From IMG/VR virus record IMGVR_UViG_3300028485_000154, positions 1-5,800 of that record: DNA of 5,800 bases; one strand, written 5' to 3'. The position numbers are program-made. Positions 1 to 3,000 of this stretch are shown piece by piece (the stretch's first letter is position 1; each line of letters starts with the position of its first letter). Origin of the DNA: a virus. Its lineage: Duplodnaviria; Heunggongvirae; Uroviricota; Caudoviricetes.

Positions 1-3000
1 GCATTTTTCCTTCGACAGCTTCATTCCCGGTATGACGGGCTTACCATCCACCATTGTGGCACCACGACAGATGGTCCATATGCCGGAGCCATCGCGGTAT
101 GCAGTGGTGTGATTCCCCTCTTTTTCATCCAGAAACTGATCGAGAATGTCAGGGGCAGGAGCACTGGCGGCAATCAGTGCCAGAACAGCAGCCGACAGGC
201 TGTATCTGATTTTTACGTTCATGGGTATTTATCAGGATTTATCGGCTTCAAATCCCCGGATATGTTAAATCTTACCTCGCCAGTGATGGGCACTGGCGGG
301 AGGAGGATGTCAATCTGATAAACACAGAGGTGACTATGGATTACACAAATCTACCAAAACAAACTTTTGCTGATTTAATCGCACTCAGGCAAGCAGTCGT
401 AGCTCTAATCAACTTGTTGCCAGAGAAGGAAAAGGAATTAGTTAAAGCGCTTCTTAACAGAACTGCCGCCGATTTTTCATCATATTCACTGACAGATGAC
501 CTTGTGGACCTTCCTGAATTAATTGCAGCGTCCGCCATTAAGCTTACTGAAGAGATTTACCCTCCTCAAAAATCTTCACAAAATTCCTGCGAGTAACTTC
601 AATGCAATAATCGTAAAACGCCGCAAACTGCTCATCGCGGTGTTTTTTTTCATCTTCAGAAGGAATCAGCACCGACAATTTTTTATTCAGATCAGCGACG
701 CTGCCCTCCAGTTTTTCAATGAGCGATTCAATATCATCTTTTTCTGACCGCAATGCCGTCGGTGGCGTCTTCAGAGAACCAGTAATTCTTCCCGGTAGTT
801 TTCCTCTGTAGGTTATCCACACATTCTGCGCCTCTAAAATTATGGGGCGCTTTCCCGGCAACGGTTCGTTCCCTTCACATAACCCGGCAGCAATATCCCG
901 GAACAATATCTTTGCCTGTTTGATTGCCTCTGTCTCGTAAAACTCCAGCGTTGCCCCTTCAACACGATCCATGCTGATATTCAGATCAACAATTTCACCG
1001 GCAAAACGTTCTTTATCCTGTAAGGCTACAATTACCGAGACTTTATTCTCAAAATTGCGGGTCCCTTTCACAATCAACTCATAGCTTTTAATCATTGAAT
1101 TACTCTCCCCGCGCCGCCTTGCGACGGTCCTCTTTTATCTTGAAGTACAGATTCGTCAGATAAGTCAGAAAACCCAGGAACAGGCTCCCCAGCACACCAA
1201 TCGCAGCCCACTGAGACGGACTAACCTGATCAAGCCATTGTAAAAACCAGTAGCCAGCACTGCCTGCGGAGGTGCCGTAGGCAATGCCTGTTGATATTTT
1301 TTCCATCTGATACATATCCCGCCCCGACAGACCTGTGCTACCGGAAAGAAAAAAGGCCATCAGCAAAACTCTGATGGCCTGAATCACCTTTACCAGTCAT
1401 GTATGAAGACAACACATGCAATCAGTTGACAATGATTCTCATTTCCATTAAAAAATACCGCGACATTCTTATTCATGAGGAGCTATACCCGCCAGCAACC
1501 AAAGTAGCGAAAGCTGTTCATCCCCCCAATATTTTTGCTGGCGGGTTCTTTTTTCTACTATCCTCCTCCCCGAGGGGGCATTTCAGTCTTTTTCTCATTA
1601 ATCGTTACCTGAAAGGCGGAAGAAAAAGTCCGTTCTTTGGCCCTAAATTACTTCATAATTTATGTCCATGCAAAATCTGATTTCCAACTCACATAATAAC
1701 CTGATGATACACTTGCAAAACCTGATAACATCAGGTTACTATGCGCCTGTGAAAAAATCTTCACGTTTTATTCCTTGCCGCCCGCGTTTCCCAACGCGGG
1801 CTTTTTTTCGAATCCCCCCTATTTGTGGAGGCATGGACAGCTAGGACAGAATACCTGGGTATTCATCATGATCCGTTGACCAATAGTACTTTCAATAATG
1901 GTCTGGCATCATAAAACTCCTCATAATAATTACTGCTTCTGTACACACCACCATCACGAGTGCCTCTTAGTGAAAAACATGCTGTCAGGAGTGAACCAAA
2001 TGCATTAATACGTGCTCGTACACTCACCTGAGGAACAGGAATATTAGGAATAACGCCAGGATTCGAGTCAGTAGAAATATTTAGATATCTGGGATTACTG
2101 GTACCTGAGCCATCACTGACAACACCAGAGGTTCGATCGTAACGTAATTGAATAGCTTCAGCTATATTCTCAGTCGGAATAAAACCGTCGGCAACGATTT
2201 CACTTTGCTCCCTCATCATTATATCTTCAAATCTGCTAAATGTTACTCCACGTCCTCTCAGTAACTGAACAGATGGCTCAAGCGAATAAAACTCATGATT
2301 CGCTCTGATCCTGTAGCGATATAAGTTACCATGAAATGTAGAACTGGAGAAATATTGCCTTGCTATACTATAAGTCTCATTTATGTCTGCAGTTGTTGCA
2401 ATAAAGGCGCTATCCCTAGACCCTGCAGCACATGAATCTCCTCTTACATGTTGCTGTAAATTGCGGTTAGCTCCGTGTGATCGAAATCCTTCTCTGAATA
2501 CAACGTCCGGTGGTCGGGAATCAACACGATACACAAACTGTACTGCATCTGTATTAAATGAAAGAAGCGTAAATATGAAAAATATAAAAGTTTTCATACT
2601 TCCCCCTTAGCTTTTTAATTACCAGAGGATGATTAACGCTTGCGCTCTGGACCAAAGCATTGATCTTCCTTAAAGCAGGTTGAGAAACCAGCTATAGCAT
2701 TTGTTGTTATTTTAGAAAACTCCTCATGTTTCCAGATATTTGGTTCATAATATACCCTGACTCTCTGCCCAGTGGAATAATAATACATAGCCTGATTATA
2801 AAAAGTATCAAATGCCGGAGACCATATTGAATACCCAGAAACCAGACATGCTGAGAGATTTACTTCCGTTTTAACAGCCTTAATACAAAAATATGGTTTT
2901 GAGTCAACCATTCCTGTATGGATATCCTGAATTACAACTTCTGAATACATGCCATCTTTTTTGGACCCCGTCCATTCACTGTCAGCGCTGGCATTAAAAC

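Follow-up and report, generated by a model that had tools for sequence, protein, structure and literature searches.

A long-form YdfR/DUF1327 gene between the pinholin and endolysin genes of a tailed phage and the antisense leader-cargo unit beside it

The closest described relative of the gene analyzed here is ydfR (b1555) of the Qin prophage of Escherichia coli K-12, which lies between the S21-type holin gene essQ and the lysozyme gene rrrQ and whose product was reported as a partner of RNase E (PMC13232886, RNA Biology 2026). Here, a stretch of 5,800 nucleotides (nt) from a tailed phage of the Caudoviricetes (positions 1 to 5,800 of the IMG/VR virus record IMGVR_UViG_3300028485_000154, referred to in the following as the window) was analyzed with respect to a gene for a protein of 183 amino acids (aa) that occupies the same slot and likewise begins 4 nt behind the stop codon of the holin gene. 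The N-terminal domains of both proteins are homologous, with 46 of 74 residues (62%) identical over aa 1-74 (BLASTP E 3e-32). K-12 YdfR differs in that it is 103 aa long, ends in an unrelated short tail and is encoded by a gene overlapping rrrQ directly; moreover, it lacks the C-terminal coiled coil, the convergent cargo gene and the leader motif found in the window. We propose that the long-form YdfR of the window is a cytoplasmic passenger of the late operon, and not a lysis enzyme, which may dock on RNase E; taken as a whole, we place this explanation a little short of an even chance. The gene and its neighbours in the lysis cassette are as follows.

544-1095, minus strand: 183-aa long-form YdfR/DUF1327 protein (open reading frame (ORF) with ATG start; Pfam, PHROG and RefSeq).
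1100-1315, minus strand: S21-type pinholin of 71 aa (Pfam Phage_holin_2_1, E 2.7e-35; RefSeq 216-nt "class II holin family protein").
1103-1108, minus strand: Shine-Dalgarno sequence GGAGAG of the 183-aa gene, within the 3' end of the holin gene, 7 nt before the ATG (read from the sequence).
1-222, minus strand: 5' part of a signal-arrest-release (SAR)-type endolysin gene, which runs off the window (Pfam Phage_lysozyme, E 3.8e-06; phrog_7, endolysin; RefSeq "lysozyme").

Membership of the 183-aa gene in the YdfR/DUF1327 family is nearly certain, as judged from profile and sequence comparisons. Residues 1-112 matched Pfam DUF1327 (PF07041) with a score of 119.9 bits, the cut-off being 25 (E 5.5e-35, positions 1-92 of the 93-position profile), the full-length protein matched phrog_2091, which is itself 183 positions long (E 1.9e-97), and PF07041 was carried by 251 of 251 homologues of the protein. 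RefSeq names the gene "YdfR family protein", and it is an already known and named member of the family rather than a discovery in itself. A preliminary description of the window, made from the DNA alone, had labelled the gene unrecognised, which the Pfam match and the RefSeq name contradict; it had guessed a likeness to ydfR, and rightly so, but had held that homology could not be established, which the comparison with K-12 YdfR does.

The ORF is intact, and the holin stop codon TAA (1102-1100) is followed by four bases (1099-1096) and then by the ATG (1095-1093) of the 183-aa gene; a spacing of 3-4 nt between holin and YdfR genes is also found in K-12 essQ-ydfR and in the phages 2H10 and PhiR5_1. 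The 183-aa gene is cotranscribed with the pinholin gene and, as shown by this spacing and by the Shine-Dalgarno sequence inside the holin gene, translationally coupled to it; it should therefore be made late in the lytic cycle. The protein has an isoelectric point (pI) of 5.46, a top 19-residue Kyte-Doolittle mean of 0.70 and no membrane segment or lipobox, and searches of Pfam, NCBIfam and PHROG detected no lysozyme, GH108, muramidase or spanin domain. Neither the 183-aa protein nor the 86-aa product of the convergent ORF described below matched any NCBIfam model or any PADLOC family (E up to 1), and a sequence comparison with PDB chains returned chance-level matches only (E at least 0.37). 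Thus, the preliminary description was accurate in presenting a real, holin-coupled gene for a cytoplasmic-looking protein with a helical C-terminus and without lysozyme, GH108 or spanin features. The anti-defence or superinfection role that it also considered for the protein is neither favoured nor disfavoured; PADLOC gave no match. The protein is divided into three parts.

874-1095, minus strand: core domain, aa 1-74 (beta strands 5-14, 18-27 and 34-43, helix 50-71).
760-873, minus strand: basic linker, aa 75-112, pI 10.4, ending at a recombination/indel breakpoint (predicted disordered; predicted local distance difference test (pLDDT) 25-39).
547-759, minus strand: C-terminal extension, aa 113-183, with a predicted coiled coil and the motif DEQFAAFYDYCIEVTRRNFVK (AlphaFold2 helices 122-143 and 147-181, low confidence).

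For the core domain, AlphaFold2 with a diverse alignment predicted three antiparallel strands and one helix at a mean pLDDT of 91.3 and a predicted template modelling score (pTM) of 0.79, and the Tyr-Glu pair at the start of the helix (Y53 and E54) is invariant in both family alignments. A profile search of 1.84 billion representative proteins returned just 115 clusters, among which stand-alone homologues of 72-76 aa align gaplessly to aa 1-72 and keep Y53 and E54; therefore, the conserved unit is the 72-aa N-terminal domain. DNA encoding the N-domain is present in 4349 of 5426 complete E. coli genomes (~80%), with up to ten copies per genome, and this domain is common to homologues of all lengths found (103, 114-116, 162, 168, 169, 176, 183, 211, 246, 296 and 305 aa). 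Most long forms share the coiled-coil stretch LRSEKDDIESxIEKLE and the motif DEQFAAFYDYCIEVTRRNFVK, which is kept in in-frame variants of 168, 169, 176 and 211 aa and is present as a diverged copy in the 296-aa form. Since these in-frame indels keep the motif, the C-terminal extension is translated sequence and not an accident. Mosaicism within the family is strong, and in codon-position counts the segments of the C-terminal extension and of the 86-aa ORF proved nearly invariant and mosaic. Scans for related loci with single proteins yielded one further locus, which was already known.

The genomic setting of the family speaks for a late-operon passenger. Seven distinct distant DUF1327 proteins (72-76 aa) were traced to contigs, giving 14 loci, and none of the seven is encoded between a holin and an endolysin gene: one gene lies between the genes for a tail chaperone (DUF1799) and the tape measure protein, three lie between gpM and gpL, and three are found upstream of HNH and terminase genes, one of them after an endolysin gene, an Rz-like gene and one further gene. 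Linkage to a holin consequently does not extend throughout the DUF1327 family, its seven distant members being located in tail or terminase regions. All related DUF1327 loci, which belong to enterobacterial temperate phages and prophages, have the gene placed on the late-gene strand. Judged by this placement, the common feature of the family is expression from the late operon, and not the slot in the lysis cassette. With the distant DUF1327 genes standing outside lysis cassettes, a lysis-specific role is therefore disfavoured.

The evidence for a contact with RNase E was obtained with K-12 YdfR, and searches of the literature on DUF1327, on ydfR with essQ and on moron cassettes returned nothing bearing on function beyond that study. 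Codons 1-72 of K-12 ydfR were recovered as a partner of RNase E when a library was screened by two-hybrid assay, Rne1-598 was pulled down by Strep-YdfR, and the Strep-YdfR eluate held DNase-resistant nucleic acid, as was observed for the adaptor RapZ (PMC13232886). The RNase E-binding region mapped in K-12 YdfR is the part that is conserved in the window protein. Because the K-12 N-domain suffices for RNase E binding and YdfR co-purifies with RNA, docking would be the most likely activity: as suggested by the K-12 homologue, the N-domain of the window YdfR would dock on the catalytic N-terminal half of RNase E, and the decay of host RNA would thereby be inhibited or redirected late in the infection. 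More speculatively, YdfR might serve as a RapZ-like protein adaptor, handing a specific RNA over to RNase E, or else as an RNase E antagonist, and the RNA acted on might be the local cargo mRNA with its leader or a duplex arising where late and cargo transcripts collide.

RapZ presents the small RNA (sRNA) GlmZ to RNase E's catalytic domain, and K-12 YdfR is alike in contacting solely the N-terminal catalytic half of the enzyme, in the pull-down of Rne1-598 and in the co-purification of RNA (PMC13232886). The parallel extends to the window in that a conserved structured RNA adjoins the 183-aa gene. However, RapZ has no sequence or fold relation to YdfR, and the comparison is one of working mode, not of membership. 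The RNase E modulators phiKZ Dip, T4 Srd, RraA and RraB showed no detectable homology to YdfR either. The RNA-binding regions of RNase E that are bound by Dip lie in the C-terminal scaffold of the enzyme. Dip is described as a binder of these regions (PMC4980113), whereas K-12 YdfR binds the N-terminal half.

The gap between holin and endolysin genes, in which the preliminary description had correctly placed the 183-aa gene, also contains a convergent 86-aa ORF and a leader at 270-325, both of which that description had missed.

250-759, unstranded: 510-bp block consisting of leader, 86-aa cargo ORF and YdfR codons 113-183, absent from short-form relatives.
336-596, plus strand: acidic 86-aa cargo ORF (pI 4.57), overlapping the last 53 nt of the 183-aa gene (phrog_2572, E 3.7e-52; RefSeq WP_072033262.1 and WP_001306174.1, "hypothetical protein").
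270-325, plus strand: structured 5' leader RNA of the cargo gene (covariance model R1, 35 bits, E 7.7e-07, the window sequence having been in the training alignment of this model).
627-651, plus strand: terminator-like hairpin with T8 at the 3' side of the cargo ORF (promoter/terminator scan; consensus match only).

When the window was compared with the toxin prophages of strains R1 and BCE049, similarity ended at position 760 (codon 112) and resumed at 249, and the 510 bp of the window are replaced there by 51 bp, which yield a YdfR of 116 aa. As this comparison shows, the last 71 residues of YdfR are gained or lost along with the convergent 86-aa gene and its leader, the 510 bp behaving as a single block. 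Of 5426 E. coli genomes, 294 have at least 80% of this block, and it also occurs in Salmonella, where it lies behind a different holin family. The cargo ORF is preceded by the Shine-Dalgarno sequence GAGGTGA (327-333, plus strand) and is kept in E. coli and Salmonella with an identical 53-nt overlap. Its product gave 18 matches, all from E. coli or Salmonella, eleven of which cover at least 95% of the query and are 83-96% identical, and the best Pfam match was a sub-threshold one to DUF1823 (E 0.072). As divergent homologues were absent, the coding status of the ORF rests on annotation, on the Shine-Dalgarno sequence and on analogy with other cargo genes. The hairpin at 627-651 lies antisense within the YdfR codons EDEKKHRDEQ and would end the cargo transcript there.

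The leader is composed of the helix UCAGCC/GGCUGA, a covarying 8-bp hairpin and the helix AGAGG/CCUCU, which crosses the first one. In the window, the central hairpin (278-298) reads CGCCAGTG-ATGGG-CACTGGCG, the minimum free energy of the leader is -29.4 kcal/mol (z = -4.85), and a second hairpin covers part of the Shine-Dalgarno sequence of the cargo gene. In an alignment of 51 sequences, the three-helix structure had 96.1% of cells paired as compared to 30-50% in slid controls, and nine leader pairs showed compensatory changes, the observed values being reached by none of 500 shuffles. Among 45 unique cores, the 8-bp hairpin comprised 312 Watson-Crick and 41 G.U pairs on the cargo strand, as against 2 positions that were G.U on the late strand, and the cargo strand folded better than the late strand in 38 of these cores. 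Because the G.U pairs concentrate on the cargo strand, the leader is an RNA of that strand; a late-strand sRNA was ruled out on the same grounds. The hairpin was also considered as an operator matched to each cargo protein, and this was rejected since the stem variants do not track the cargo families. The CCUCU arm of the leader lies within GAUUACCUCU, which resembles the 3' end of 16S rRNA. None of the 4227 Rfam covariance models matched the leader, with E limits of 10 for the window and of 1 for five canonical loci. At the endolysin end of the gap, the start codon of the SAR endolysin gene (window 222-250, minus strand; 1722-1750 in locus L029) has no obvious Shine-Dalgarno sequence; GATAAATCCTGATAAATACCC-ATG, located just 5' of this start, is kept in prophages with or without the 510-bp block and resembles the 'ATATCAGG' box upstream of canonical leader elements.

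The non-coding stretch upstream of the cargo ORFs is homologous in all distant DUF1327 loci and in the window. In each of the 14 distant loci the next gene, at a distance of 9-28 nt, is a small opposite-strand ORF of 70-101 aa, and these convergent ORFs represent at least four unrelated families, three of which match PHROGs of unknown function and one of which has no significant match. A search of IMG/VR with the leader pattern returned at least 120 stretches (loci L030-L149; the remaining leader loci are L008, L010-L014, L016-L021 and L024-L027). A small ORF starts ~20 nt past the motif in 105 of them, and these 105 ORFs form 32 BLAST clusters. Where the unit could be evaluated, a convergent gene directly follows the cargo ORF in 88 of 96 cases, and five of these convergent genes are DUF1327 members. 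Wherever a convergent cargo gene is present, covariance model R1 also detected the leader, and this includes the locus of the 305-aa YdfR form, in which a 233-aa cargo ORF is uncalled; by contrast, K-12 Qin, phage YYZ-2008, the 296-aa form and the short-form toxin prophages gave no match to the model. Taken together, the leader-plus-cargo unit is apparently a recurrent phage element that is undescribed in Rfam and in the literature searched.

The 86-aa gene resembles the lambdoid morons (such as lambda bor and the HK97 morons) in being an opposite-strand unit between late genes with a terminator-like hairpin, and the unit is similar to acr-aca style loci in that many unrelated small ORFs stand behind one conserved element. 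It differs from both in having a structured 5' leader RNA as its conserved element and in that no consensus promoter was found, and from acr-aca loci in that the cargo gene and its conserved neighbour are convergent rather than members of one operon.

A second leader copy (445-513, minus strand, 49 bits) is present on the contig of locus L012, upstream of other small minus-strand genes, and one genome can therefore carry several leader-cargo units; the same contig encodes an Acb2/Tad1-like gene nearby. Of the 88 convergent late-strand neighbours in L030-L149, 60 belong to one loose BLAST-linked group, within which the motif MTLEQRVEALE is located at or near the N-terminus in 33 of 49 distinct sequences, and some members of the group (phrog_11851) also carry a beta-rich domain together with the helix 'TLEGYNQRAKEHA'. 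A relationship of the commonest convergent-neighbour family to DUF1327 is doubtful (hhalign probability 14%), and phmmer and hmmsearch detected no derivation of the YdfR C-terminal extension from the MTLEQRVEALE companions.

Several observations weigh against the explanation of YdfR as a late-operon passenger that docks on RNase E. Full-length K-12 YdfR gave a two-hybrid signal solely with Rne1-597, its overexpression altered few transcripts and left growth unaffected, and a contaminating protein as the holder of the RNA could not be ruled out by the authors (PMC13232886). For the window protein, we infer docking from a homologue that is 62% identical in the binding region, and the acidity of its N-domain (pI 4.95) is uncommon among proteins that bind RNA directly. 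As to the cargo unit as the place of action, the cargo gene of the window showed no consensus sigma-70 promoter, most leader-cargo units have no DUF1327 neighbour (just 5 of 120 leader-bearing loci adjoin a DUF1327 gene), and many YdfR genes of E. coli, with products of 103, 114-116 and 296 aa, stand without a cargo gene, so that YdfR must have a function independent of the cassette. A wider reading, which we regard as unlikely, would make the YdfR/DUF1327 proteins late-strand companions of a widespread antisense leader-cargo cassette, controlling the cargo mRNA or the duplex via RNase E at the lytic switch, and would have a pseudoknot-like leader drive variable cargo genes that form antisense insertions within late operons of temperate phages of enterobacteria. 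The link to the cassette is supported by the homologous leader carried by 14 of 14 loci of the seven distant DUF1327 proteins.

The alternative that survives best is a two-gene accessory module, in which the cargo would be expressed in the lysogen, for example as a defence, exclusion or host-modifying factor, and the late YdfR would silence or neutralise it at the protein or RNA level as the prophage turns lytic, much like the conserved regulators beside variable anti-CRISPR genes (acr-aca) or the antidote of a toxin. Such a module, to which we assign a minor though appreciable probability, would fit with the adjacency of DUF1327 and convergent cargo genes, which persists in four genomic contexts and with cargo genes from at least four unrelated families, with the gain or loss of the C-terminal extension and the cargo gene as one block, and with the high variability of the cargo ORFs reflected in the 32 clusters. 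However, PADLOC matched neither protein, none of the cargo families has a known function, and the two genes are frequently found apart, the DUF1327 neighbour being missing from most leader-cargo units and the cargo gene from beside many YdfR genes.

A regulator of lysis timing, which the preliminary description had listed among the possible roles, would be a cytoplasmic protein that counteracts or assists the pinholin or the SAR endolysin and tunes the time of membrane depolarisation, like P1 LydB or T4 RIII. These are likewise small soluble proteins encoded directly after the holin and co-expressed with it; they share no homology with YdfR, and DUF1327 relatives are also found far from any holin. 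In E. coli and Salmonella lambdoid prophages, YdfR genes are always located between holin and endolysin genes, and they start 3-4 nt past the stop codon of S21-type holin genes and 18 nt past that of the different holin family in Salmonella. On the other hand, phage 21-type cassettes work without a YdfR-like gene, the 183-aa protein has no membrane segment, and no holin adjoins the distant family members in their tail and terminase regions. Overexpression of K-12 YdfR had no effect on growth (PMC13232886), and although ydfR is listed among envelope-integrity mutants in a published screen, as far as that screen is cited in PMC13232886, this phenotype of the knockout could be a polar effect on the overlapping lysozyme gene rrrQ. 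Despite the position of the gene, we therefore consider a role in lysis timing to be quite improbable.

That the 183-aa ORF is a decaying remnant, i.e., a functionless truncated pseudogene of the 296-305-aa YdfR, would be in line with the strong mosaicism of the family and with the prokaryotic genome annotation pipeline (PGAP), which flags the 99.9% identical copy in strain R1 and copies in other strains as 'incomplete; missing C-terminus'. We judge this to be very unlikely. The ORF is intact and ends with a stop codon of its own, the annotation of strain E7-1N7 (L006) treats the 183-aa form as intact, phage 2H10 has this form as well, a 211-aa variant is carried by the induced phage PhiR5_1, and protein clusters of the family are large (681 members in P0006). 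Furthermore, the C-terminal motif persists in every one of the indel forms (168, 169, 176 and 211 aa), and the extra tail of the 305-aa form, which runs antisense through an uncalled cargo ORF, may itself be read-through. With regard to annotation, intact YdfR genes of 176-183 aa are marked as pseudogenes by PGAP/RefSeq in L001 (9555-9896), L005 (2037-2372) and L007 (2061-2396), which looks like an annotation inconsistency arising from mosaic C-termini. In the 305-aa form (L024 and L025; 3167-3868, minus strand), the last ~80 codons are those antisense through the 233-aa convergent ORF, which looks, by eye, like a 210-aa cargo cluster (L066) and is accompanied by a weak leader match (E 0.013); the extra tail may thus be read-through and not a real domain.

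Beyond the lysis cassette, the window carries the following genes (all from the ORF listing).

5557-5766, minus strand: RusA-like gene.
4740-5537, minus strand: KilA-N gene.
3743-4738, minus strand: DUF968 gene.
3354-3740, minus strand: antiterminator Q.
2633-3052 and 1866-2597, minus strand: AB5 toxin pair (RefSeq names).

Almost all genes of the window are on the minus strand and their order matches a lambdoid late region, with Q, toxin, holin, YdfR and endolysin following one another along the late strand. The toxin genes are named "subtilase family AB5 toxin binding subunit" and "scabin-related ADP-ribosyltransferase" in RefSeq, and the pair (1866-3052, minus strand) sits between antiterminator Q and the lysis genes, which is the location of the stx genes in Stx phages. 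Coverage of at least 80% of window positions 1-3400 was found in just 4 of 5426 complete E. coli genomes, and the nearest complete genomes are those of E. coli of bovine, porcine and human origin. The window joins a toxin backbone to the YdfR/cargo/endolysin segment, which strain R1 has in another prophage: a 99.9% identical copy of window positions 200-1400 lies there with a DNA methyltransferase gene, and not a toxin gene, upstream of the holin gene. The toxin prophages of strains R1 and BCE049 have the 116-aa YdfR instead, and toxin prophages in complete genomes mostly have the short form. Given this block without toxin and the 116-aa form in most toxin prophages, a role in toxin release, another of the roles raised in the preliminary description, is disfavoured. 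A factor serving the release of the AB5 (pertussis-like) toxin encoded nearby, as TtsA does for typhoid toxin, would agree with the location of the YdfR gene downstream of the toxin genes in a shared late transcript, but is close to refuted by these prophages, by the absence of a muramidase or other enzymatic domain from the 183-aa protein and by the spread of the family, which 80% of the complete E. coli genomes carry.

Between the toxin genes and the holin gene, window positions 1349-1568 (minus strand) gave a sub-threshold Rfam match to SgrS (27.7 bits as compared to a gathering score of 37, E 3.7e-05), and this stretch includes a strong terminator-like hairpin with a T-run (1354-1380, minus strand) just 5' of the holin start.

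The gene itself is ordinary, and the greater interest lies in the neighbouring cassette. The leader-cargo unit provides a testable candidate RNA target for YdfR and, moreover, a route to many small, fast-changing phage accessory genes. As for the YdfR family, whose function is unsettled, the comparative context argues against a lysis-specific role, and if the tie to RNase E holds, YdfR would be a very common candidate for a phage modulator of host RNA decay.

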